From the NCBI GenBank assembly GCA_910577095.1, contig CAJTLY010000007.1, positions 34,317 through 98,316 of the forward strand: a DNA stretch of 64,000 bases. Reading direction: 5' to 3'. Origin of the DNA: an uncultured Alphaproteobacteria bacterium (GTDB lineage Bacteria; Pseudomonadota; Alphaproteobacteria; RF32; CAG-239). Shown here piece by piece: positions 106 through 36,000 of the stretch. Positions within the stretch are counted from its first letter, which is position 1. The number at the start of each line of letters is the position of its first letter. The position numbers were made by a program, and so were the translations under genes. The notes below the pieces were generated by a model that worked only from the letters and a program-made list of their open reading frames with translations, searched no databases and was not told where the DNA came from.

Positions 106-1080
106 TTATTGCGGCGTTGCCTCGGCATTTCGGGTTTTCCACAATGAAATTCCGATCCCGGCAAACAGCAAACCGAACGTAACCGTCAACGAATGCCAGG
201 CTTCAAGTTCAAAGCCCAAAATATACGGCGCAAAAATCTTAAGGCCGATAAAGATCAGAATGATCGAAAGCGCCGGTTTCAGATAAGTGAATTTGTGTAC
301 CGCTGCTTCCAACAGAAAATAGAGTGCGCGCAGTCCCAAAATCGCAAAAATGTTGCTGGTATACACAATGAAAACATCGTTGGTAATCAGAAAAATGGCC
401 GGAATACTGTCCAACGCAAAAATCACGTCCATCGTCTCAATCGTCAACAGGGCAAAAAACAGCGGCGTAATGTAATGGCGTCCGTTTTCTTTGACAAAGA
501 AATGTTCCCCGTGAATTTTGCCGGTGACATGAAAAATTTTCGACAGGAACTTAAACAGCCGCGTCTCTTCGAATGCCGGTTCGTCTTCCCCTTTGTGCAA
601 CAGCATTTTAACACCCGTATAAACCAGAAAAGCGGAAAAGACGTACAAAATCCAATGAAAGTTGGAAATCAGCGTTTCGCCGACCCAGATCAACAGGGCG
701 CGCATGACAATCGCACCCAGAATTCCCCAGAACAAAACGCGGTGCTGATACATCCGCGGTACCCCGAGAGAGGCAAAAATCAGAGACATGATAAAAATAT
801 TGTCCAGCGAAAGGCTTTTCTCAACCAAAAAACCGGTAAAGAAATCCATCCCCTTGTCCAGCCCTTCTTCATAAATGATAAACACGCCGAAGACACAGGC
901 GGCAAGAATATAGATGATACACAAAACCAGGGTATGCCAAAAGTTCGGCACTTCGTTTTTGCGGTTAAACAAAAACAGGTCGAAAAACAGCAGCAAGAGC
1001 ACAACCACACCGAAAATTGCCCACAACCATTCCTGAGGAATGACATAATGGTTGGTAAACAAATCTTTGAGCTTTTCCAT
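106..1080 (-). CDS. TerC family integral membrane protein (Alx/YkoY-like)
   Basis: 324-aa ORF with ATG at 1078-1080 and AAGGA about 8 nt upstream. Multi-TM, with EKSLSLDNIF and DSIPAIF motifs typical of TerC proteins. Confidence 0.85.
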   Translation of the reverse strand: MEKLKDLFTNHYVIPQEWLWAIFGVVVLLLLFFDLFLFNRKNEVPNFWHTLVLCIIYILAACVFGVFIIYEEGLDKGMDFFTGFLVEKSLSLDNIFIMSLIFASLGVPRMYQHRVLFWGILGAIVMRALLIWVGETLISNFHWILYVFSAFLVYTGVKMLLHKGEDEPAFEETRLFKFLSKIFHVTGKIHGEHFFVKENGRHYITPLFFALLTIETMDVIFALDSIPAIFLITNDVFIVYTSNIFAILGLRALYFLLEAAVHKFTYLKPALSIILIFIGLKIFAPYILGFELEAWHSLTVTFGLLFAGIGISLWKTRNAEATPQ

Positions 1081-1443
1081 TTTTTTATCCTTTAAAGTCT
1101 TAAATCTGCCCTGTTATAGACTGATTTTCCCGATCCGTCAATCGTCTCGCAACGGTTATTCATCGGCTTATTACAACAAAAAATGCCATACCCCCTTGTC
1201 AAACCGCTAAAAAAATAGTATAATAAATTTGTTAAAGGAAGGTCGGCTTTCGATCCGCCTTTGACATCGGATTAACAAGTATGGAGTTTTTATGTACGCT
1301 GTAACACCGTTTGCGGTGCAATGCAAAACAAACGCTCGGAATAATTTTTTCCGGGAATCAAACAATTTATTTCAATTTTCGAACCAGATTGCTGGTTTTT
1401 CTTACACAAGTGAGGGCTTATCGGTTCTGAAAGGAGTGTAATT

Positions 1444-1968
1444 ATGCTTTCTTTCAGAGATAAATTAAACACCCGTGATCCCGAAATCATTCGTAACATC
1501 ACGGCTTCGACCGGATTTTTTGACGATACCGACATTGAAATCGGCGTTAATTTGGCTCATGCCGTCCTAAACCGGCAATATGCCAACGACAATGCGGAAA
1601 AACCCGAATTTCTGTTTGCCGAAGACGGCGACAAAACCGTCGGCTATGCCTGTTTCGGCAAAATTCAGGACTGCTGTTCCGCTTATGAGCTCTATTTGAT
1701 TTCTACCCTAAACAGTTATCGCGGGCACGGGATCGGCCGCCAGCTGGTTCAACGCCTGTTGGAAACCGTTCGCCGTCTCGGCGGTAAAAAGGTTTTTGTC
1801 AAAACAGAGGGAACCCCGCAGTATCTTCCCACCCGCAAATTTTACGAATTGTGCGGTTTCAAGCTGGAAGCCGTCCTAAAAGAATATTATGACGACAAAG
1901 ACGACTGTTATATATATTCTTACAAGTTTTGCGAAAACGAAGCGGCAAATTTGATTCCGGCCGAATAA
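1444..1968 (+). CDS. GNAT family N-acetyltransferase
   Basis: 174 aa with AAGGAG RBS before the ATG. Has the acetyl-CoA binding motif RGHGIGRQLVQRLL and a C-terminal FYELCGF block. Confidence 0.8.
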   Translation: MLSFRDKLNTRDPEIIRNITASTGFFDDTDIEIGVNLAHAVLNRQYANDNAEKPEFLFAEDGDKTVGYACFGKIQDCCSAYELYLISTLNSYRGHGIGRQLVQRLLETVRRLGGKKVFVKTEGTPQYLPTRKFYELCGFKLEAVLKEYYDDKDDCYIYSYKFCENEAANLIPAE

Positions 1969-1990
1969 ACCGCCGCAACCGAAAACAAAA

Positions 1991-2022
1991 CATCCTCCGG
2001 AAAACTCCGGAGGATGTTTTTT
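1991..2022. terminator. Rho-independent terminator hairpin between convergent genes
   Basis: Perfect 10-bp stem catcctccgg/ccggaggatg with a 6-nt loop, followed by a T-run. A-rich on the 5' side, so usable from both strands. Confidence 0.65.
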
Positions 2023-2035
2023 CTGAAAACCGCAT

Positions 2036-2452
2036 TCAATTGCGGCTGTTACGCATCAATTCACAAAAAATCTGATAACGCATTTCTCTGGAGCTCTCTC
2101 CGCCTTCATGCAGCAGATAGCCCAAAAACACATTCATCTCGTCACTTCCGACAAAATGAAAATAAGCCTGACGGCGAGCGGGGGAACAGCAGCGCAAATA
2201 GCGCATGCGAAGTTCATCTCCACGATTTTCCAGCTTTGCAGATATCTTACGATAACGGCGATACAGCCAGAAGACACGAACGGCATATACGACCGAACCC
2301 AGCAAAATGCAGGAACTCACAACCGTGTTGAACCACACGAAGCCATTCTTAGTCCCGTCATCAGCCGTGAAAACACACGCCAGCCCCAGCAAACTCCCGC
2401 AAACAAACACCATCAACGCCTGCAGCAGGTAATTTCTAAAAAACTTGTTCAT
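2036..2452 (-). CDS. hypothetical membrane protein (2 predicted N-terminal TM helices)
   Basis: 138-aa ORF with hydrophobic N-terminal half. No family recognised. The antisense ORFs look like shadows. Confidence 0.5.
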   Translation of the reverse strand: MNKFFRNYLLQALMVFVCGSLLGLACVFTADDGTKNGFVWFNTVVSSCILLGSVVYAVRVFWLYRRYRKISAKLENRGDELRMRYLRCCSPARRQAYFHFVGSDEMNVFLGYLLHEGGESSREMRYQIFCELMRNSRN

Positions 2453-2526
2453 AAAACTTGATTAATAATATAAGAAGCAAACAGAATATAACCTTTTTGC
2501 TTTTAAAAGTCCACTCCTAAATATTC

Positions 2527-2554
2527 TTGACAAAATTTTCATTATGTGTACAAT
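2527..2554 (+). promoter_or_regulatory. sigma70-like promoter candidate for the 2612 gene
   Basis: TTGACA (2527-2532), 16-nt spacer, TACAAT (2549-2554) in an AT-rich divergent intergenic region. Confidence 0.4.
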
Positions 2555-2611
2555 TTTAAGTCAGATACCAATTATTTAATAACCTATTATTCACAACAAA
2601 ACACATAAAAT

Positions 2612-3430
2612 ATGGTAAAAAGAATTATTATTAAGGGGAAACATCCGGTCTTTGAGAAAAGGGCTGCCGAAGAAAGCGCTCTCATGAAGAACGGCTCGGA
2701 TCAGGAACGCTTTTACTACATCTGTAGTCGAGGCATTCGGAGTTTGGAAGGTCAAAATGCGCTCGCACAAAGCGACGCCAGATGGATTCGTCTGCAAAAC
2801 ACCGTCCATGCCGAGATGTGGCACTACGACATTTTGCAACGCCTGCGGCAGCAAGGAATACTCCCGCCGGACGAAATGTCGGAAGCAGAGGCAAAAGAAG
2901 CCTTTCAGAACTGGTTGCGTCACAACATGTTTCGCTCACCAACCGCTTTTGCAAGCGAAGAGGAATATGGTAAAACATCACAATGGTTGATGGCCGCCGG
3001 TGCCAAACCTTCTAAAGCAAGAAACGAAAGCGAAGAGATTTCGTTGCTGCTGACCAAGGACTGGGACCGTGTGCAAAAATATCTGCGCAAATTTCATCCC
3101 AAGGCGGAAGTTCTGTTCTGTCAGACCGCGCCGTTGGAGTTGCTTTTCGCATATATTTTCCTTTTTCGCCCCCAAAGCGTCGAGGCTGAGCGCGCTCTGA
3201 TCTTCCGCAATGACAGCGTTCTCACCTGGGAACTGGTCTTTCATCACATGCTGAGCTACGAAGCCAGCCGGATCATCAAAAAGTCGGGCAACCGCTATAT
3301 CTGGAAACTGGCGGTAATGCGTAACTACGGCTTTGTGTATCAGTTTGAGCACAAGTTCGGCAGCATTGCCAAATGGCAGCAGCAGCTCGAACGCAGCTTT
3401 GACCGCAAGTATTTCAGAAAACGTTGTTAA
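2612..3430 (+). CDS. hypothetical protein
   Basis: 272-aa ORF with no signal peptide and no recognised domain. Divergent from the 2036-2452 gene. Confidence 0.55.
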   Translation: MVKRIIIKGKHPVFEKRAAEESALMKNGSDQERFYYICSRGIRSLEGQNALAQSDARWIRLQNTVHAEMWHYDILQRLRQQGILPPDEMSEAEAKEAFQNWLRHNMFRSPTAFASEEEYGKTSQWLMAAGAKPSKARNESEEISLLLTKDWDRVQKYLRKFHPKAEVLFCQTAPLELLFAYIFLFRPQSVEAERALIFRNDSVLTWELVFHHMLSYEASRIIKKSGNRYIWKLAVMRNYGFVYQFEHKFGSIAKWQQQLERSFDRKYFRKRC

Positions 3431-3442
3431 AATTCCCCTGTC

Positions 3443-3482
3443 AAAGCAAAAGTCCCGGTTTGATCAACCGGGGCTTTGCTTT
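3443..3482. terminator. bidirectional terminator hairpin
   Basis: Long imperfect palindrome aaagcaaaagtcccggtt/aaccggggctttgcttt between convergent genes, with A/T runs on both sides. Confidence 0.6.
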
Positions 3483-4032
3483 ATCCGCCGTAACCCGGCA
3501 GCGATTCTTTGCTTTCGTCATAAAGTTTTAAGGCTTCCGCGACTGCTTTGCGAGCGTCGTCAGGACCGAGGAAAGTCTCGATAATCACTTCTTTGTTTTC
3601 CAAAATTTTATAATCTTCAAAAAAACGTCTCAGCGTTTTCAGACAGTGCGGCGGCAGCTCGTCAATCGACGTATAATGGTTATACTCCGGATCGTCGACA
3701 TGAACGGCGATAATCTTGTCGTCGTTCTCGCCCTGGTCAATCATCTTCATAACACCGATCGGCCGGGCCCGCAAGATCGACAACGGCAAAACAGGCTCTT
3801 GTCCCAGTACCAAAATATCCAGCGGATCATTGTCACCGCAATAACTGCGCGGAATAAAACCATAGTTGGCCGGATAGTGAACCGCGCTGTACAAAATGCG
3901 ATCAACTTTCAGCAGACCGCTCAGTTTGTCAAGCTCATACTTGACGTTGGAACCTTTGGGTACTTCAATAATTGCATTGATGATTTCAGGCCTTGTTTTC
4001 CCGGCGCTGACGCCGTGCCATGGATGCAGCAT
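3481..4032 (-). CDS. ppa: inorganic diphosphatase
   Basis: 183 aa with family I pyrophosphatase motifs: [38 protein letters not shown]. Confidence 0.95.
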
Positions 4033-4149
4033 TTATTCAATCCTTTCCAAAAATAATTTAATTTCAATGTCGATGACAATATAATAAAAAACAGCCTGTT
4101 TCAAGGATTTTTAAATTGACAAAAACAAATTTGACCACCCGCCGCGGCG

Positions 4150-5238
4150 CTATTGCCGTTCGCCGCGGCCGGCCGCAAGCTGATTTCCCGAAAGCAGCAC
4201 TTTGTCCCAATAACGTTTCATGATCCGATGATAATCGGGATTTTCTTTCAAGTAGCCGCTTATCCTGCAGCAGGCTTCGGGCGGATAAAATTTATTTCCC
4301 GGCAGCGCTTCCACTTGCGGAATTGCATTGGCTGCCACGTTAAACGGATGACGCAAAAGAGCCCGATACCCTTCGGTACGTTTCACTTCGTCAATCGGCG
4401 GAAATTCGGTTGCCAGCGTTGCCGAAAGCCGCAGAAAAAACTTGCTTCCCTGCGCGCTGCCCAGTTCCCGCACATAATTGCCGATCATCTCGACGCACTC
4501 CTCCCGGCCGCCTTTTTCCGACACTTTGCGCAAGTTGTCACTCATCATCGAAATGGCTTCGGTCTCAGGCGTACCAATCCCGGGAACCTGAAAATCATGC
4601 ACCCATCTCACATGGCGACCGCTTTCCCACAAAGACGTATCCAAAGGTTTCGGCATTTCGCGGTTAAACATATACATCATCGTTTGCCGTCGGGCTTCCT
4701 TGCGCTGCTGCCATTCCGGGCTCGACGGATATGACGGGTCCATATTTTCGACGACCCGCACATTATACCCGGCCGCATCCATCATCTTGAGCGCATTGAT
4801 ATCACAAGCGGCTTCCTCATTGCCGTGCAGCCCCCTGATTTCGGGATCGCCGTGCTGCCAGCCAAGATGTGAGAGTTCATGTGCCAGTATAAACGCCAAC
4901 TCATCCTCGCTTTGCAGCTGTTGCAGCTTGTCACGGTTAAACATCACCACAAAATCGTTACCGCTCAAATCGGCAGAATTCATACGATCCTCAACGCTGC
5001 TGATTCGCGCCGGACTGTCATCTTCGCGGTCTTGCAAATAAAAACAAACCCGATAATCCTTCAGAACGCGCGCACCGCTGTAGAAGTTATCGACCAGTTT
5101 ATGCGCCATTTGCCGCATAAACACGCCAAAGCTGCGCCCTGCCTCACTTTCCGGCGAAACGAAATGATTAAAATTTGCCAAATCCAAATCAACGTTCGGA
5201 TTTTTCACTCTGTAGACATCTTGCCGGTTATCAGACAC
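4150..5238 (-). CDS. hypothetical protein with M48-like HExxH metallopeptidase core
   Basis: 362 aa with GTG start. HELSH encoded at 4867-4881, followed by GNEEAACDINALKMMDAAGYN (E-x-x-A-x-D ... AGY layout). No signal peptide or TM. Confidence 0.6.
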   Translation of the reverse strand: MSDNRQDVYRVKNPNVDLDLANFNHFVSPESEAGRSFGVFMRQMAHKLVDNFYSGARVLKDYRVCFYLQDREDDSPARISSVEDRMNSADLSGNDFVVMFNRDKLQQLQSEDELAFILAHELSHLGWQHGDPEIRGLHGNEEAACDINALKMMDAAGYNVRVVENMDPSYPSSPEWQQRKEARRQTMMYMFNREMPKPLDTSLWESGRHVRWVHDFQVPGIGTPETEAISMMSDNLRKVSEKGGREECVEMIGNYVRELGSAQGSKFFLRLSATLATEFPPIDEVKRTEGYRALLRHPFNVAANAIPQVEALPGNKFYPPEACCRISGYLKENPDYHRIMKRYWDKVLLSGNQLAAGRGERQ

Positions 5239-5319
5239 TGTTTAAGTCCCCCGTATTAAATATTGCTCCAATATAACATTTGGGACATAAACTTGTCAAA
5301 AATAAATTTATCGTTTTTT

Positions 5320-5910
5320 TCAAATCACCGGATTATAGGCCCATTGTAACAAAGCCTGGCGTTGCCGCGCCCGGCAGCCGACGTCAAAAGGCATGCAGTT
5401 TTTTTCCACCTGAGCCAGATGACGGCGAAACGAGCGCCACCTTTTTATCTGAACTTCGTCAATTTCGGGCAGCCGCCGTCCGTAATAATAACGGCAATAC
5501 CATTGAAACCAACCGCGCACGTCCGGGCCGATAATCCAGCCGCGCCGGCGCCATTCCGACAACGAAAGTCGTGACTTGACACCGAAATAATTATACAGCG
5601 GGTTGCTCCTTTCCGGTGATAAAATGGCATGATCAAACCATCGTTCGGGGAACTCTTCCCAACAATCGGTCATATACTTTCCTTCAAAAACTCCCATGTC
5701 CAACATCTGGATCGGCGTCAACTCCGGTTTGAAATCGGGATGAAAATTCTGCCCCTCCGGTTCACTGAGCAGATAGCGATAATTTTGCTGCATCTTGTCG
5801 TTCACGACCACTTCTTTGGGAATCCAGTTGACTTCCGGTATCGGACGGCAACAATTGCAGGGTTGAAAATTTCTGCTCTGCCAAGTTTCGGTCCGCATTT
5901 GTTCTGCCAT
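5320..5910 (-). CDS. hypothetical protein (Trp/Arg/Cys-rich, conserved-looking)
   Basis: The ORF runs to 5949 (GTG), but the ATG at 5910 has AGGAGA 6 nt upstream. Has motifs CNCC and GWFQWYCRYYYGRR. Family not recognised. Confidence 0.55.
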   Translation of the reverse strand: MAEQMRTETWQSRNFQPCNCCRPIPEVNWIPKEVVVNDKMQQNYRYLLSEPEGQNFHPDFKPELTPIQMLDMGVFEGKYMTDCWEEFPERWFDHAILSPERSNPLYNYFGVKSRLSLSEWRRRGWIIGPDVRGWFQWYCRYYYGRRLPEIDEVQIKRWRSFRRHLAQVEKNCMPFDVGCRARQRQALLQWAYNPVI

Positions 5911-16244: not shown

Positions 16245-16277
16245 GGCTCTCCGTCAAATACGGAGAGCCTTTTTCTT
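16245..16277 (+). terminator. Rho-independent terminator
   Basis: ggctctccg-tcaaata-cggagagcc hairpin followed by a T-run. Confidence 0.75.
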
Positions 16278-16447
16278 ATGCTGATCCCGTTTCCCTATCG
16301 CTTTTTGACAAATATTCGTTAACAAACCTTTCAAATTTATACAAAAAGTTGTGGATAAAAGTTAATAAACCATTTACTTTTAGGTGTATTTATTATATTG
16401 TTCGCGCGTAGCTTGAATCAGGTCCGTCCTGTTTCAGGCTTTTTTTG

Positions 16448-16482
16448 ACCGCCATAGCCGTGTGCTATGGTGGTTTTGTTTT
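16448..16482 (+). terminator. strong terminator-like hairpin only ~27 nt upstream of the 16509 start codon
   Basis: 11-bp stem accgccatagc/gctatggtggt with a 5-nt loop, then TTTGTTTT. Lies downstream of an already terminated gene. Confidence 0.5.
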
Positions 16483-16508: not shown

Positions 16509-17831
16509 ATGACTAACAAATTGCAAAACACTAACGATAATCGCCACGGCAGACACAACCGCTTTAACGTCGCGGCGCCGGTGCTTGCCCGACAGATTGA
16601 GGCTTTGTCAGACCCCGGACGGGAACCGCTCCGGCAGATACAAGACCGGCTCAACCGGCTGGGATACGGCGGTTTGGACAACAGCCTGATCGCCGGAATC
16701 AAACAGTTTCAGAAAGATCACGGCCTGCAGGCGGACGGTGTGATCAAAGCCGGCGGCGAAACCCTCCGCAAACTCAATCAACTCAGCAGTGACCCGCAAA
16801 ATTTCCGGCCGATTGCAACAGCGTTGCCCGATACTTCGGGTCTGAGCCTGCGTGAAGAACTGGAAGGCCGCTTTAACGGAACCCTTCCGATCGTCCGAAC
16901 CGATCCGCAAACCGGTTTTCGCTCCGCTTATTATTTCGGCCGCGAGAACGAAACCACGCCGCTTTCTTCCGACCGGGCAGCTCTGTCCATGTTGCCGCAA
17001 GCGCTGACGAAGAAAGATATTAACGCCAAGCCGCACAATTATTTCCGACTGCCGGAAGATTGTCACAATCCTCGTCATCTCTTGCGGATGCACCTGAGAA
17101 GGCTAAATCGGGGTGGCCGGCGTACTGGTTCATTTCAACCCGACCATACCGGTTACAGCATGATCTCCACTTGTGACGACGGCCGCCAGTTCATCAATAT
17201 GCAGGATTTGGAAAGAACTGATGATGGTAAGATCATCTTTAACCACAGTTATACACCGGCACGGAATTACCTCACCGACCACGGCATCGTCACCTGGAGT
17301 ACCGAAATACCGGAAGAGATGAAAGCTCATTACGATAACATGACAGATTATCTCAATGCCAAAAATGCTTCTCACCGCATTGTGGCATTGGGAAATGAGG
17401 CGGAACGCATTTATAATCTGATGGGATTTGAAAACGAGCTGATAAACGCAGTACCGGATCAACAAAAACCGGAATACGGCCTTTCCTTTGATAACTGCAA
17501 TACTTCCACTCAATGGAAAAAAGATAACCACCTTTCCAATTTTGAAGGTGATATAGAAGATATGATGGGCAATCATGTTGCCGGAGAAGGATGGGAAATG
17601 TGGAGAAATGTTAACGACCATTATCAAATTGTCGATGCGGCCAGAAATGCCTTGCTGGCACACAACCCGAAAATTGATTTTGCCGAGATCTGCAATATTC
17701 ATTGGAGTGATATCAACCAACCGCAGGGCGAAATGATGCGTTTTTCCGACAATCAGCGCAACTATATCGTTGATAAAAATCCCAACTATAGGGGTACATA
17801 TCAAGTTATGGTACAGTCGCGGCGGAAATAA
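16509..17831 (+). CDS. hypothetical modular protein with N-terminal peptidoglycan-binding (PG_binding_1-like) domain
   Basis: 440-aa uninterrupted ORF. LGYGGLDNSLIAGIKQFQKDHGLQADGVIKAGGETLRKL matches the PG-binding repeat pattern. The C-terminal ~220 aa are unrecognised and lower in G+C. Confidence 0.7.
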   Translation: MTNKLQNTNDNRHGRHNRFNVAAPVLARQIEALSDPGREPLRQIQDRLNRLGYGGLDNSLIAGIKQFQKDHGLQADGVIKAGGETLRKLNQLSSDPQNFRPIATALPDTSGLSLREELEGRFNGTLPIVRTDPQTGFRSAYYFGRENETTPLSSDRAALSMLPQALTKKDINAKPHNYFRLPEDCHNPRHLLRMHLRRLNRGGRRTGSFQPDHTGYSMISTCDDGRQFINMQDLERTDDGKIIFNHSYTPARNYLTDHGIVTWSTEIPEEMKAHYDNMTDYLNAKNASHRIVALGNEAERIYNLMGFENELINAVPDQQKPEYGLSFDNCNTSTQWKKDNHLSNFEGDIEDMMGNHVAGEGWEMWRNVNDHYQIVDAARNALLAHNPKIDFAEICNIHWSDINQPQGEMMRFSDNQRNYIVDKNPNYRGTYQVMVQSRRK

Positions 17832-17840
17832 TCCGGGCTT

Positions 17841-18362
17841 TTAATTACGCAAAAAAGCAAAATAAGTGGAAAAAAGGGTAAAATAAAAAATTATCCTCAG
17901 CACTTGGGTGGTTCGGGTCGGCTGATGGTCCAAGAAACAGTCTTTGGGCAAACATAAGCCGACCATTCCCCAAAAAGTGGAAGCAAAGAAAATATACATG
18001 GAACCCGTTTCCAACTGATGACGAAAAGGAATAAGAGAATATATTATGCTCATAATAAAAAACACAACTGTCATAGATAAGGATATCCATGTTGCCCGTG
18101 CAAGAAATTGTCGCTTATTGTAACTGAAAACAGCAAAAATGTACGCTAAAAATGCTATAATGTATGGTGTCCCAAACAATAGCTTTTCAAATCCATAACA
18201 CGCCATCTGTTGGGGGGTGTGAGAATCATTCGGATCTGCAAGCATCAACAGATAAAATAATCCCGCTAAAATCGCGCCGATAAAATACAGCGCCCTCACC
18301 ACCTCAAACAATATCCGGCCGTATTTCAAAAATTTCTCATTCTTTAAAACTTGCAACATCAT
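17841..18362 (-). CDS. 5-TM paralog, array copy 1
   Basis: 173 aa, N-terminus MMLQVLKNEKFLKYGRILFEVVRALYFIG. Five hydrophobic segments and the conserved CLPKDCFLDHQPTRTTQ block. Confidence 0.75.
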   Translation of the reverse strand: MMLQVLKNEKFLKYGRILFEVVRALYFIGAILAGLFYLLMLADPNDSHTPQQMACYGFEKLLFGTPYIIAFLAYIFAVFSYNKRQFLARATWISLSMTVVFFIMSIIYSLIPFRHQLETGSMYIFFASTFWGMVGLCLPKDCFLDHQPTRTTQVLRIIFYFTLFSTYFAFLRN

Positions 18363-18473
18363 TCTTCCTCCATTTCTAAAACTCTAGGCTAAATGAAAAA
18401 TGATGTAAAGCTAAATTGTAAAATCCTCCGTCCTCAACAATCGTCCCCTCTCACGGCTAAATAATCGGAGATT
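18363..18473 (-). promoter_or_regulatory. conserved 111-nt leader of array copy 1
   Basis: Near-identical to the three other leaders. Contains GGAGGA just before ATGATG and a twice-repeated ATTTAGC motif. Confidence 0.55.
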
Positions 18474-18529
18474 TTAACCAAAGATATAATAAAGCAAAAA
18501 AGCACAGTAAGTGAATAAAAGGATAAAAA
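18474..18529 (-). pseudogene. relic of the 3' end of a further array paralog
   Basis: ttaaccaaagatataataaagcaaaaaagca... aligns with the last ~55 nt (stop included) of copies 3 and 4, then the homology breaks. Confidence 0.65.
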
Positions 18530-18581
18530 TTCTAACTATACAGATGTATATCAGGTTATGGGACAGCCAAAAGCCGAATAA
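18522..18581 (+). pseudogene. relic of the 3' end of a second copy of the 16509-17831 gene
   Basis: Ungapped alignment to 17772-17831. Translates in frame as DKNSNYTDVYQVMGQPKAE* versus DKNPNYRGTYQVMVQSRRK*, with the stop at the same position. Confidence 0.65.
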
Positions 18582-19107
18582 TTCGGTATACGGGGAAGGA
18601 TAAAAAAGAAATTGATACAATAAAATAAAAAATTATCCTCAGCATTTGGGTGGTTCGGGTCGGCTGATGGTTCAAGAAACAGTCTTTGGGTAAACATAAG
18701 CCGACCATTCCCCAAAAAGTGGAAGCATAAAAGATATATAAGGAGGTCAACGCAAAAATATCGTTATCTATTCGAGGAAAATTATAAGGTATATATTGAG
18801 ACAAAAAAACGATTAGAATTGAAAAAACAGATATCCATGTCACACGCTTTATAAATTGTCTCTTATTATAACTGAAAACGGCAAAGATGTACGCTACAAA
18901 TGCGATCGCCGGAGGAAAACTAAGTAAATCTTTCAGTCCGCTCAAGGCGGCTTGTAATATCGTTTGTCTACCGTTCGGATCTGCAAGCACAACTGTATAG
19001 AATAATCCGACTATAGTCGCACCGATAAAATACAGCGCTCTCACCACCTCAAACAATATTCGACCGTATTTCAAAAATTTCTCATTCTTCAAAACTTGCA
19101 ACATCAT
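18556..19107 (-). CDS. 5-TM paralog, array copy 2
   Basis: 183 aa. Same N-terminus and conserved blocks as the others. Its C-terminus differs because the ORF reads into the plus-strand relic. Confidence 0.7.
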   Translation of the reverse strand: MMLQVLKNEKFLKYGRILFEVVRALYFIGATIVGLFYTVVLADPNGRQTILQAALSGLKDLLSFPPAIAFVAYIFAVFSYNKRQFIKRVTWISVFSILIVFLSQYIPYNFPRIDNDIFALTSLYIFYASTFWGMVGLCLPKDCFLNHQPTRTTQMLRIIFYFIVSISFLSFPVYRIIRLLAVP

Positions 19108-19218
19108 TCTTCCTCCATTCCTAAAACTTTAGGCTAAATGAAAAATGATGTAAAGCTAAATTGTAAAATCCTCCGTCCTCAACAATCGTCCCCTCTCACG
19201 GCTAAATAATCGGAGATT
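19108..19218 (-). promoter_or_regulatory. conserved 111-nt leader of array copy 2
   Basis: Near-identical to the other leaders. Confidence 0.55.
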
Positions 19219-19746
19219 TTAGCCAAAGATATAATAAAGCAAAAAAGCAAAATAAGTGGAAAAAAGGATAAAATAAAAAATTATCCTCAGCACTTGGGTG
19301 GTTCGGGTCGGCTGATGGTCCAAGAAACAGTCTTTGGGCAAACATAAGCCGACCATTCCCCAAAAAGTGGAAGCATAAAAGATAAATACAGACCCTATAT
19401 ATAACAGACCATTGAAAGGAAGGTAAAAAAGCCTCATGTTCGTTATCAAATAAATAGCTCCCCCACTAAGTGATATCCAAGTTGCTCGTTTAATAAATTG
19501 CTCCTTGCTATAACTGAAAACGGCAAAAATGTATGCCGCAAACGCTATTGTCAGAGGAAAACCAAGTAAATCTTTCAGTCCCTCCCATGCGGCTTGTAAT
19601 ATACTCTGTCTGCCATTTGTATCCGAAACCACCAGATAAAACAATCCGATTAAAACTCCGCCGATAAAATACAGCGCCCTCACCACCTCAAACAATATCC
19701 GGCCGTATTTCAAAAATTTCTCATTCTTCAAAACTTGCAACATCAT
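19219..19746 (-). CDS. 5-TM paralog, array copy 3
   Basis: 175 aa. Same N-terminus and conserved blocks, ending LLYYIFG. Confidence 0.75.
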   Translation of the reverse strand: MMLQVLKNEKFLKYGRILFEVVRALYFIGGVLIGLFYLVVSDTNGRQSILQAAWEGLKDLLGFPLTIAFAAYIFAVFSYSKEQFIKRATWISLSGGAIYLITNMRLFYLPFNGLLYIGSVFIFYASTFWGMVGLCLPKDCFLDHQPTRTTQVLRIIFYFILFSTYFAFLLYYIFG

Positions 19747-19857
19747 TCTTCCTCCATTTCTAAAACTCTAGGCTAAATGAAAAATGATGTAAAGCTAAAT
19801 TGTAAAATCCTCCGTCCTCAACAATCGTCCCCTCTCACGGCTAAATAATCGGAGATT
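19747..19857 (-). promoter_or_regulatory. conserved 111-nt leader of array copy 3
   Basis: Near-identical to the other leaders. Confidence 0.55.
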
Positions 19858-20388
19858 TTAGCCAAAGATATAATAAAGCAAAAAAGCAAAATAAGTGGAA
19901 AAAAGGGTAAAATAAAAAATTATCCTCAGCACTTGGGTGGTTCGGGTCGGCTGATGGTCCAAGAAACAGTGTTTCGGCAAACATAAGCCGACTATCCCCC
20001 AAAAAGTGGAAGCAAAGAAAATATACATGGAACCCACGACTACCAGATCATTAAAAGGAACATGAAAAAATCTCATCTGAGTTATAATAGAAATAGCCAA
20101 CGTCAACAACGATATCCATGTCACACGTTTTATGAATTGTCTCTTATTATAACTGAAAACGGCAAAGATGTACGCTACAAATGCGATCGCCGGAGGAATG
20201 GTAAGTAAATCTTTCAGTCCGCTCAAGGCGGCTTGTAATATCGTTTGTCTACCGTTCGGATCTGCAAGCACAACTGTATAGAATAATCCGACTATAGTCG
20301 CGCCGATAAAATACAGCGCTCTCACTACCTCAAACAATATTCGGTCGTATTTCAAAAATTTCTCATTCTTTAAAACTTGCAACATCAT
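19858..20388 (-). CDS. 5-TM paralog, array copy 4
   Basis: 176 aa. The N-terminal half is nearly identical to copy 2 and the C-terminal end to copies 1 and 3. Confidence 0.75.
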   Translation of the reverse strand: MMLQVLKNEKFLKYDRILFEVVRALYFIGATIVGLFYTVVLADPNGRQTILQAALSGLKDLLTIPPAIAFVAYIFAVFSYNKRQFIKRVTWISLLTLAISIITQMRFFHVPFNDLVVVGSMYIFFASTFWGIVGLCLPKHCFLDHQPTRTTQVLRIIFYFTLFSTYFAFLLYYIFG

Positions 20389-20499
20389 TCTTCCTCCATT
20401 CCTAAAACTTTAGGCTAAATGAAAAATGATGTAAAGCTAAATTGTAAAATCCTCCGTCCTCAACAATCGTCCCCTCTCACGGCTAAATAATCGGAGATT
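20389..20499 (-). promoter_or_regulatory. conserved 111-nt leader of array copy 4
   Basis: Near-identical to the other leaders. Confidence 0.55.
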
Positions 20500-33030: not shown

Positions 33031-36000
33031 CGATCCGGTCTGCTTTGGTGGTCGCACGCACGGCCGGATCGTATAAAGCTTCGGCAACTGCCGGCGGAAC
33101 CACAAAACTGCCCCGTGCAATCACCTTGGTTTTATAAGTCACAGTTCTTGCCGAAGGTGACGCCGTCAGATACACCAGCGCCCGGTCCTCACGCAACTCA
33201 TAGTTGTCCGTTTCTCCTTTGAGCGAGTTCTGTACCATCTCCAAACATCCGGGTATCAAATCAACAATCGCCACGTCGTTAACATACTTGCCGTTTTGGC
33301 TGCGGATTTTCAAAACCACCGTAATTTCATCGCCGATTTCCGCTTTCTGCAGCCGCTCGCCGTCTTTGTCGAGGTAGGTCTTGCTGATTTCCAGCCCTTG
33401 CGAAAGCGGTTTGCCGGCCGGTTCTTTCAAAAAGCCGTTTTCGCTGATCACATAGTAAAACGGTCGGTCGGAAGCAACTTCCAGTTCTTTGACCGAAGCG
33501 TCCAGCGGAAAACGGGCAAAGCCTTTTCCCTGATACTTTGTACCGTTAAACGAAATATCGTTGTCGCTGTCGCTGCGTCCGACGGCGTTCAGCGCCAGCA
33601 ACGCATTTCCGGCCGAAGCGGTGGTGAAGTTGCCCTGCTTTAACGGTTTCAGCAATGCCTCAACGCTCTTCTGCCCCAAACTCTTAAGGTCATCGGGAAA
33701 ATGAACTGCTGTCAGATAAATATAGCGGGCATCTTTTACCGTATTCCGGCCGGTTTTGTAATAACCGGTCAGTTGCCGCGCTTTGGCGTCGTTTTGCAGC
33801 AGTTTATAAGAAGCGGCCAGATAAACCGAAGCCAGCGAAGAACGCGCTTGGGAAGAATCCGGCAACCCGAGATCCCGCTCAATCCGTGTCAGATATCCTG
33901 AGGTTATTTCACCGTTCAGCGTCAGCAGATAAGCCGCATACGCCGGATTGTCATCCAAGTCTCCCCGCACCGGACGTGCAGCCACATTGCGCGCATACTG
34001 CAACGCTTTGTTCAGCAACGAAGCCGGAACCTCAAGGTTGTTCTTGCGTGCCGAGAGTAAAAAGTGCAAAGCATAGAGGCTGTCATACTCTCGGGCCTGC
34101 GACCACTCGGAAGACCAGGCCTTGAAACTCCCCTCCAGCGTTTGCCGTTCCGTCAGCTTGGCCAAAACGTCGTCATAAAGCGCATAAATGTCCGCGTCTT
34201 TCAACAATTCCGGCTTGTTAAAGAATATTTCCATTGCCGGAAACACCTTACTGACCGACTGCTCGGTACAAAAATGCGGAAAGGCGTTCAAGAACGTCAG
34301 CAACCCTTGTGTCAACACCAACGGCGAAGCCGACGCAACAACTTCCTGAGAACGGTATTCTTCAAACATCGGCCGTACAAAATCTTTCAGCTTCAGGGTG
34401 TTGGCGGCAAAACCCATTTTATTCTCGGAAACAAACGAACTTGCCGGACGTATCCCCACTTCGTAAGAAATTCGGGACGACTGATCGCCGTTATCACGGT
34501 TGGAAGCGATGAAGGCCAGCGGCACCGATCCCAGACGTTCGCCGCTCTTAACCTTAAAACGCGCTTGTCCCTCTTCGCCGTAAGCCAACTTCAGAACCTG
34601 AACGTCGTCGCCGACAACTTCCAGTCCCTTCCCCGCCATCAGACGCACTTCTACCGGAATTGCCGGTGAATTTTCCATCATGTTGGCAACACTGACGGCC
34701 GCGTCGAAAACATCTCCCGGCGAAACATTGTAAGCGCCGGAAGGAACCAATGCAAAGTCTCCGCGCACGGCCGTCTGCCGTTCCGTCTCTCCCATCCGGC
34801 GCTCGGAAACGCCGACCGCTATGATTTTGATTTCGCCGTTAAAGTTTTCGGGAACCTGATAAGTGTAGGTCCGGGGCGTTGTTTCAACGGGCACAATTCC
34901 GCTCCAGAAAACGACCGGACGGTTCTGCTTGCGGGCAAACGGATTGACCCGCAAATCGGGTTTGGCGCCCGTTTCCATATCGCCGCCGATTCCTTTCAGA
35001 TAACGCACGATTTTGATGTCGGGCAAAATCAGGTCAAGAATTTGCGAAGTCACCACCTGCAGCGCTTTCTTTTGGATAAAATAGTTCAACGGCTGCGGCA
35101 TTTGGTACCGGGCCACTTGTAAAATACCGGTATTGACACCGTAAATAATCACTTCTCCCGGATAATCCGCCTGATATTCAATCGTCAGTTCGCGTCCGGG
35201 TTTTACCGTTGCCGGCGCATTCAGACCGATCTTGAGGCGGCGCGCCGCCTTGTTGATCGAAAACGGAACCACGGCATAACTCAGCGGCGAAACGAATATC
35301 TTGTCGGAATCGAGATTCCGGATCCACGAAACATTGATATAAGCGTTCCCCTCTATCCCCTGCGGCAGTTCAATTTCCTGCGTCGTGGACGAGGTCTCGG
35401 ATTTGAACCATTTGTAAGCATACACCTTGTCCCGTTCAATCGTGATCAGCCCGTAACCGGAATACGGCGCCGATATTTGCATCTGAATCTGCTCACCGTC
35501 GTTATATTCGCTGCGATTCAGCTTAATTTCCAACCCGGCTTCGGTATCGGCGGCATAAGTCGAATTGGTGTCTCCGGTCACGCTGTAATCGATCCGCATC
35601 ACAATATTTCCGTCCGCATCTTCCGCCTGCAAATAATAGTCGCCCGGCGCTTCGGTATTGAGAAAACGGCTGCTTCCGCCGGCGTCAATCGAAAAATCCT
35701 CGCTTTTGAGTTTTTTTTCTGCCGGAACCGCTTTGTAACGATAGGTACGGTCCGGCATCTGAACCAGACTGGAAACATACTCGCGTTGATACAGGCTCAG
35801 TTTCAAATCATTAAGCGCAATCGGCTGCAGAGACGAATCAACCGCCACCAGCCGCACCCGGCGAACCGAAGACTTGTAGATATAGTTCAGGGCGCCGTCG
35901 GCCTTAAAACCTACCAGATAAGCGTTCGGCGACACCAGCATTCCTGCCGATGCCGACACGCCGCGGCCTCCGGTCAGTTCCAACCCGTCGACATTGATAT

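Follow-up and report, generated by a model that had tools for sequence, protein, structure and literature searches.

A putative modular toxin with an exchangeable C-terminus and a convergent array of candidate membrane immunity genes in an uncultured gut alphaproteobacterium

What would a protein with a peptidoglycan-binding N-terminus and an unrecognisable C-terminus do in a gut bacterium, and why would its gene face a row of four related membrane-protein genes? The question is raised by a 64,000-nucleotide (nt) stretch of DNA (the window; positions 34,317 to 98,316 of contig CAJTLY010000007.1, assembly GCA_910577095.1) from an uncultured human-gut alphaproteobacterium (RF32; CAG-239). At 16509..17831 on its plus strand lies an open reading frame (ORF) of 440 residues, which begins with ATG and has an AAGGA ribosome-binding site 9 nt upstream. 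The original prediction, made from the letters of the DNA, gave this gene the architecture of a polymorphic toxin; that interpretation is partly supported, in that its core holds and its details are corrected below. The gene probably encodes an interbacterial, bacteriocin-like polymorphic toxin, and the four convergent genes would then represent a cognate immunity gene and an array of "collected" ones. With the same likelihood, the candidate toxin is composed of a disordered N-terminus, a peptidoglycan-binding domain, a motif of about 35 residues that recurs in lineage-specific effectors, and a C-terminal killing domain.

The N-terminal part conforms to what had been proposed for it. Residues 39-89 (16623..16775, plus strand) match PG_binding_1 (Pfam PF01471, E=2e-8) with 34.7 bits against a gathering cut-off of 23, and so belong to that family. 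No other family was found in the 440-residue protein in Pfam or NCBIfam, and as a single sequence it has no match among Protein Data Bank (PDB) sequences, in agreement with the earlier description of the C-terminal half as unrecognisable. The extreme N-terminus (MTNKLQNTNDNRHGRHNRFNVAAPVLARQ...) reads as lacking a hydrophobic core and therefore bears no Sec or Tat signal, as the original prediction also held.

A sister strain (L001 = G020) shows the C-terminus replaced at the corresponding, syntenic position. There, the homologue P0006 retains residues 1-146 at 91% identity and after residue 146 continues into an unrelated C-terminus of 104 residues in place of the original. Behind it lie a hydrophobic ORF of 41 residues, a remnant of the original gene (its final ~126 nt, closely matching the 3′ end of the gene in the window) and a single array-type gene. 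Judged by gene order, this is how C-termini are displaced at contact-dependent inhibition (CDI), Rhs and Maf loci. The new C-terminus shares 42% identity (E=8e-42) with that of a free-standing protein from another species of the genus, and its donor was not found at the two loci examined in the sister genome.

The exchange point falls at the end of a short shared motif (residues 112-146; 16842..16946, plus strand; LSLREELEGRFNGTLPIVRTDPQTGFRSAYYFG), delineated by profile matches and with the consensus ..LEGxFNGxxP[IV]xRxNPQTG..YY or, more loosely, ..LxGxFNGxxP[IV]xRxNPxTG..YY. A profile of the C-terminal part of the toxin candidate matched many ORFs of 170-300 residues in the genus, in each case only at residues 112-146; in these ORFs the motif occupies the extreme N-terminus (e.g., MSETGDYLRGIFNGEIPVKRKNPQTG..., MPDTTYEYLQGVFNGEHPIQRQNPQPG... 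and MANETYNILQGIFNGQTPIQRSNP...). No Pfam or NCBIfam model covers it. Since the swap in P0006 occurs directly after the motif, the latter acts as a conserved junction, and it may in addition be a trafficking tag. The peptidoglycan-binding N-terminus was thus rightly taken as a conserved module, but that module also holds this motif, with the swap junction immediately behind it.

A census of the motif recovered 45 unnamed protein clusters that carry it at the N-terminus, followed by at least eight unrelated C-termini. These include a GH108 muramidase (Pfam E=5e-15), an SAA-like domain (E=2e-8), Tlde1 (precomputed PF10908) and several types without a name. Prok-SAA has been described as a tip of polymorphic toxins, with lipid head groups as its predicted target (PMC12419801). 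The motif is found in 44 of the 201 genomes of the order and in 4 of its 22 genera, all within one family. Unrelated alternative C-termini on a conserved N-terminus, as expected of polymorphic toxins, are accordingly seen both in P0006 and in the motif-led family. At least two lysine or arginine residues occur among the last eight positions in 71% of the family as opposed to 38% of background ORFs; because the samples are non-independent, these positively charged tails are a lead only.

The genome of the window contains four motif loci (C3, C12, C18 and the present one, C7), each with immunity-like neighbours. At C3:16301-17089 (plus strand; L009 1486-2274), a 262-residue GH108 protein with an N-terminal motif is convergent on a 158-residue signal-peptide protein (L009 2280-2756, minus strand) with a conserved (Y/L)(Q/R)xELEKCD segment, which is likely a periplasmic lysozyme inhibitor or immunity protein. 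At C12:10353-11781, a motif-led GH108-type gene that has been shortened to 98 residues converges on two tandem signal-peptide paralogues; its counterpart in the sister genome G020 (L026 2618-3900) is intact at 254 residues and has a single partner. The third locus, beside secY/adk (C18:15497-18831), encodes a toxin candidate of about 289 residues with a C-terminus of unknown type, downstream of which the same strand encodes a 203-residue polytopic protein, then an orphan C-terminus (17188-17493) and then a further two polytopic proteins. This order is that of a classical toxin/immunity/orphan array, as far as sequence can indicate. Beyond this genome, the metagenomic protein P0020 consists of Ntox44 and LysM with PG_binding_1 and the motif at its C-terminal end, and its gene is convergent on a polytopic ORF.

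The motif resembles the beta-arm sequence of HU proteins (R-N-P-Q-T-G), and on one 3.2-kb metagenome contig a 243-residue protein (P0039) joins an HU-type DNA-binding protein to a motif-led toxin exactly at RNPQTG. This chimera may have arisen by genuine recombination, or the microhomology may have misled the assembly.

Homologues of the full 440-residue protein are rare, with only seven among 5.8 billion clustered proteins, none of which is named in any source. The closest variant, P0002, is 100% identical in DNA over residues 1-176 and 373-440 and 92-93% identical over residues 177-317. Between these stretches lies a hypervariable patch (residues 318-372; 17460..17624, plus strand) with two allelic types; identity to P0002 here falls to 65% of nucleotides and 56% of amino acids, and 24 codons differ non-synonymously compared with 5 synonymously. 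Types A and B of the patch recur in alignments across different genetic backgrounds. Conservation is hence non-uniform along the protein, residues 177-372 being those that differ from P0002. The accompanying notion of a conserved N-terminus and a variable C-terminus is only partly right: it describes P0006, but the more distant homologues P0004 and P0007 conserve the C-terminal domain better than the peptidoglycan-binding domain, which P0007 lacks altogether.

The compositional shift within the gene, first noticed from hand counts of five 60-nt lines, proves genuine. Those counts were exact (0.633, 0.567, 0.433, 0.350 and 0.450), and the complete analysis gives a G+C content (GC) of 0.566 for residues 1-176 (0.64 at third codon positions) and 0.447 for residues 177-440 (0.48 at third positions). 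None of 500 codon shuffles reached the observed contrast at the best change point (nt 17190, residue 227), and an equal difference between halves occurs in only 0.3% of the 651 long ORFs of the genome, which measures 1.67 Mb and has a GC of 0.48; that of the array is 0.376. GC falls gradually, starting within the C-terminal domain: the change point at residue ~227 lies away from the module junction at residues ~146-176. Of the proposed polymorphic-toxin architecture, the swappable C-terminus stands, on the strength of natural variants, the sister strain among them, and the GC break at the module junction does not.

The C-terminal toxin-candidate domain (residues ~176-440; 17034..17828, plus strand), delimited by remote homologues found in a whole-library HMMER search and by an AlphaFold2 model, has two positions that are invariant across all of those homologues: H213, within HTGY (17145-17147), and C330, within NCNT (17496-17498). 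H195 (17091-17093) is nearly so. Several remote homologues are the N-terminal domain of large repeats-in-toxin (RTX; HemolysinCabind) proteins, and the domain therefore presumably works outside the cell. Polytopic membrane ORFs stand downstream of remote homologues (L024), among them P0015, which has mobile-element surroundings. Modelled alone, the domain reaches a predicted local distance difference test score (pLDDT) of 85.9 and a pTM of 0.85, compared with a pLDDT of 66.6 for the whole protein. It is predicted to consist of five long antiparallel strands and then helices, C330 being placed at a helix start. Foldseek searches against PDB (twice) and BFVD (once) returned no significant neighbour. 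The best match in PDB has E=0.047 and a TM-score of 0.16, and the top matches are unrelated beta-rich or lipid-binding proteins with TM-scores below 0.25; the profile of the domain likewise has no match among PDB sequences.

The order H195-H213-C330 and the location of C330 recall the circularly permuted papain-like enzymes (LRAT or NlpC/P60). No such structure is among the Foldseek matches in PDB, and Pfam gives no match to either family. With that membership rejected, the domain is treated as a new family, probably with a Cys/His active site, as suggested by the model and the invariant residues.

The four membrane-protein genes all lie on the minus strand. Copy 1 (173 residues; 17841..18362), the candidate cognate immunity gene, is convergent on the toxin candidate, and is followed by copy 2 (183 residues; 18556..19107), copy 3 (175 residues; 19219..19746) and copy 4 (176 residues; 19858..20388). 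Hydropathy and lysine/arginine distribution predict five membrane helices for each protein, with the N-terminus inside. The paralogues are 97-100% identical in their N-terminal 29 residues and 83-100% identical in their cytoplasmic loops, in contrast to two blocks, residues 30-70 and 95-125, at which identity is only 19-67%. These blocks correspond to the two predicted periplasmic loops with the adjoining helix halves, and appear to have been reassorted: block 1 is common to copies 2 and 4, and block 2 to copy 1 and the gene in L001.

A remnant of a second toxin gene, diverged in sequence, sits between array copies 1 and 2 (18522..18581, plus strand); it comprises the 3′ end with the stop codon. 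The existence of such a relic had been noted in the original prediction. It is 45-60 nt long, and 18522-18566 matches 17772-17816 at 36 of 45 nt; its translation, DKNSNYTDVYQVMGQPKAE up to the stop, compares with DKNPNYRGTYQVMVQSRRK up to the stop. Orphan fragments and surplus immunity cassettes of the kind that mark polymorphic toxin loci are thus represented by this relic, the remnant in L001, the orphan at C18:17188-17493 and the four array copies.

The pairing of toxin candidate and membrane protein recurs elsewhere. In L004, which has a different chromosomal context, a toxin homologue is accompanied by a convergent homologue of the array proteins (37% identical), and a homologue of the five-helix protein stands beside every intact toxin homologue with available flank (the window, L003, L004 and L043). 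Another strain provides a 1.5-kb contig (L042) with at least three tandem, nearly identical genes of the copy-1 type, which means that array size and content differ between strains. The array is also a frequent site of contig ends (L005, L006). Comparison by hhalign of the array-protein profile with the membrane ORFs in L023 and L024 detected no homology, the likeness there being one of kind only.

Each array gene may be independently transcribed. The leaders are repeats, 83-95% identical, and a consensus scan finds a promoter-like sequence (TTTACA-17-TAGAGT; 18381..18409, minus strand) in that of copy 1, with equivalents (TTTACA-17-TA(A/G)AGT) at 19126-19154, 19765-19793 and 20407-20435. On the toxin side, a terminator-like hairpin (16447..16475, plus strand; a 12-bp stem, then a T-run) lies 33 nt before the start codon. 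The upstream gene has its own terminator ahead of it (16245-16269), and the hairpin may be a leader or attenuator that controls toxin expression. Rfam contains no match for it, nor for any sequence in the leader or the array; the promoter and terminator assignments are consensus matches only.

A number of observations weigh against a polymorphic toxin with dedicated immunity genes. The protein has none of the recognised secretion or trafficking modules by which polymorphic toxin systems are identified: Pfam and NCBIfam give no match to Rhs, PAAR, LXG, TPS, MuF or XVIPCD domains, and a signal peptide is missing. TssC (PF05943) has no match in this 100%-complete genome, although a control genome was matched; a type VI secretion system (T6SS) is therefore probably absent, and with it the apparatus expected of the host of a T6SS effector. 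The C-terminal domain has no toxin fold recognisable by sequence or structure searches, an outcome that the original prediction of a C-terminus without a visible toxin motif had foreshadowed. Classical CDI, Rhs or Maf loci do not usually have their genes in convergent orientation. Toxin and immunity variants do not run cleanly in parallel: patch types A (P0003) and B (P0005) adjoin immunity genes without a difference in the 94 C-terminal residues that could be compared, block 1 being absent from the contig. The replacement C-terminus of P0006 is about 45 residues shorter than its free-standing relative, and is possibly inactive and a dead end. Finally, in one lineage (12 contigs from different samples) a frameshift near residue 150 splits the toxin gene into parts of 156 and 279 residues; in the copy at L003 6510-7840 (= G015:C2), the frame is broken in the linker that follows the motif, and the one immunity gene is undamaged. 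The gene is therefore dispensable there.

An alternative source for such a protein is a phage. It could be an endolysin-like or virion-associated cell-wall hydrolase with holin-like partners, or a toxin carried in the manner of MuF proteins by particles of a phage or resembling gene transfer agents; MuF capsid delivery is a described polymorphic-toxin route (PMC3482391). PG_binding_1 is typical of endolysins, which likewise lack signal peptides, and PHROG endolysin families match the 440-residue protein, solely over its peptidoglycan-binding stretch. The distant homologue P0007 (43% identical), which shares the C-terminal domain and has its own N-terminus (..VEVKAHTRDGYDVVAHTRS..), is encoded immediately behind a portal gene (phrog_12082, E=3e-113) of the phage-like contig L002. 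The order there (235-5337) is a GroES-like fragment, a 161-residue polytopic ORF, an Ntox44-LysM-MuF protein, the portal gene and P0007, so that L002 has the appearance of a phage with a toxin-like protein on either side of its portal gene. As in MuF toxins (PMC3482391), then, a homologue of the C-terminal domain adjoins a portal gene, and relatives combine Ntox44 and LysM with MuF or, in P0020, with PG_binding_1 and the motif. The protein of the window differs in that it has no MuF match, and phage context is confined to its distant homologue. No phage genes surround it, the neighbours being LemA/TPM and MoxR/DUF58/TPR, and 50,697 GenBank phage records and IMG/VR contain no match to it. Its convergent orientation is not that of a holin-endolysin operon, and four diversified membrane-protein copies with promoter-like leaders, relics and a swapped C-terminus are a poor fit to a lysis cassette. 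A phage origin of this kind is consequently rated as unlikely.

The surroundings of the gene raise a second alternative, namely an ordinary envelope-maintenance protein, such as a wall-bound enzyme or scaffold, that happens to lie beside an unrelated, rapidly duplicating membrane family, its GC shift reflecting an old gene fusion. The flanking MlaA/MlaC, LemA and TPM genes are envelope-related, no toxin motif can be recognised and one lineage tolerates a broken copy. A maintenance function is difficult to reconcile with the distribution of the gene, which is present in only 3 of the 29 species representatives of the genus, whereas the adjoining TPR gene is core (28/29). In other species of the genus, different genes stand between MlaC and TPR, from which it follows that the locus is an accessory island in a variable spot. 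Furthermore, the membrane-protein pairing is repeated in a different context, the C-terminus has been replaced and has left relics, and the motif is common to GH108, Tlde1 and SAA effectors with immunity-like partners of their own. We regard this explanation as quite improbable.

Least probable is a toxin-antitoxin or abortive-infection module confined to the cell, its membrane proteins sensing or countering the 440-residue protein within the producer: the absence of an export signal and the tight linkage are in its favour, but the peptidoglycan-binding domain, sister effectors that act outside the cytoplasm (muramidase, Tlde1) with partners carrying signal peptides, and the concentration of array variability in predicted periplasmic loops speak against it, no PADLOC search having been made. 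The convergence on the array had been remarked on in the original prediction, and the linkage is close. The stop codons of the toxin candidate and copy 1 are 9 nt apart (17829-17843) with no terminator between them, and convergent transcripts would therefore overlap, making antisense interference possible.

For the favoured interbacterial toxin, the closest functional analogues are, by analogy of organisation, the ColM-type and pesticin-type bacteriocins. These are likewise modular proteins of 200-450 residues without a signal peptide whose killing domain acts on the wall or its precursors (a target that would be shared here), which form hybrids by diversifying recombination and often have the immunity gene downstream in opposite orientation. 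A convergent downstream gene encoding a protein of predicted membrane location is what is found in the window. In lipid II-degrading bacteriocins of the ColM type, immunity genes occupy that position and some of the products are polytopic, with 3-6 membrane helices, including BmiA with three and PmiC with six (PMC5821083). The present protein differs in having neither a ColM (PF14859) nor a lysozyme domain, and receptor-binding and translocation domains cannot be identified in it. There is no lysis gene among the neighbouring ORFs, and no TonB/Tol or SOS box was recognised, no dedicated TonB-box or LexA-box search having been made. Moreover, the gene is chromosomal, in a gut alphaproteobacterium, and its shared motif is new.

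Similar comparisons apply to the classical polymorphic toxins (CDI CdiA-CT/CdiI, Rhs and MafB; PMC3482391). Common to both are a conserved N-terminus with variable C-termini, a short junction motif (the analogue of VENN or PxxxxDPxGL), relics of displaced C-termini, immunity arrays and diverse tips, among them the prok-SAA type. The family described here differs in its size of 170-440 residues, in lacking a signal peptide or a trafficking domain for type V, VI or VII secretion, and in its convergent immunity genes, although these are co-directional at C18. Within this system, the shared motif and the candidate toxin domain are undescribed, and the candidate immunity family is polytopic.

The X-Tfe proteins of Xanthomonadales are type IV secretion system (T4SS) effectors that act on wall or lipid in the periplasm, are accompanied by periplasmic immunity proteins (X-Tfi) and are recognised through a C-terminal XVIPCD domain. 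The genome of the window similarly has a conserved T4SS and no TssC match. It encodes, at C5:~61900-96200 (L022), a VirB4-like ATPase (821 residues), the products of pilus-type genes (a GspE-like ATPase, a GspF-like platform and a secretin-like protein) and very large repeat proteins of 1293-1507 residues. VirB4 is single-copy and present in 26 of the 29 genomes of the genus, which marks this T4SS as core and not as a conjugative element of scattered occurrence. It occurs with or without motif proteins, a distribution that is compatible with delivery by the T4SS and does not discriminate between routes. The parallel is limited in that XVIPCD was not detected here and the shared motif is N-terminal or internal; a connection between the T4SS and these effectors is hypothetical.

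Toxicity, the compartment of action, catalysis by His and Cys and the route of delivery are what we infer in the following scheme. Action on the periplasmic side is suggested jointly by the signal peptides of the sister partners, the variability of the array proteins in periplasmic segments, the wall-binding domain and the wall or lipid-carrier specificity of sister C-termini. The protein would leave its producer independently of the Sec pathway and reach the periplasm of related cells, conceivably by colicin-like release and import, by the genus-wide T4SS or in phage-like particles. Its peptidoglycan-binding domain would tether it at the cell wall, where the C-terminal domain, probably an enzyme using H213 and C330, would damage the outer face of the inner membrane or the wall itself, with lipid-linked wall precursor, phospholipid and peptidoglycan as candidate targets. 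The five-helix proteins may neutralise it through their two periplasmic loops and, each with its own putative promoter, could protect cells against incoming toxin. New toxin-immunity combinations, relics and accumulated immunity genes would then result from recombination, both at the shared motif and within the C-terminal domain.

A bolder version of this scheme can be put forward only tentatively. In it, the ~35-residue motif is an address tag for an undescribed delivery route of antibacterial effectors in one family of human-gut Alphaproteobacteria, either an N-terminal or internal signal for the genus-wide T4SS, unlike XVIPCD, or an epitope for import across the outer membrane of the target, and the C-terminal domain is a Cys/His toxin of new fold that attacks membrane or wall and is countered by polytopic immunity proteins.

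Polymorphic toxins shape competition between gut strains, and nearly all of those described need a known secretion apparatus or trafficking domain. One lineage of uncultured Alphaproteobacteria with small genomes, from the human gut, appears to possess a family of swappable effectors, with four loci in this genome, that are joined only by one short motif without annotation and carry no export signal that can be recognised. If this is correct, the family would bring to light a novel motif for trafficking or for module junctions, a novel toxin domain without a counterpart among solved structures, and a polytopic immunity protein whose specificity seemingly resides in two periplasmic loops. It would also make it possible to assign an annotation to dozens of gut-metagenome genes now labelled "hypothetical".

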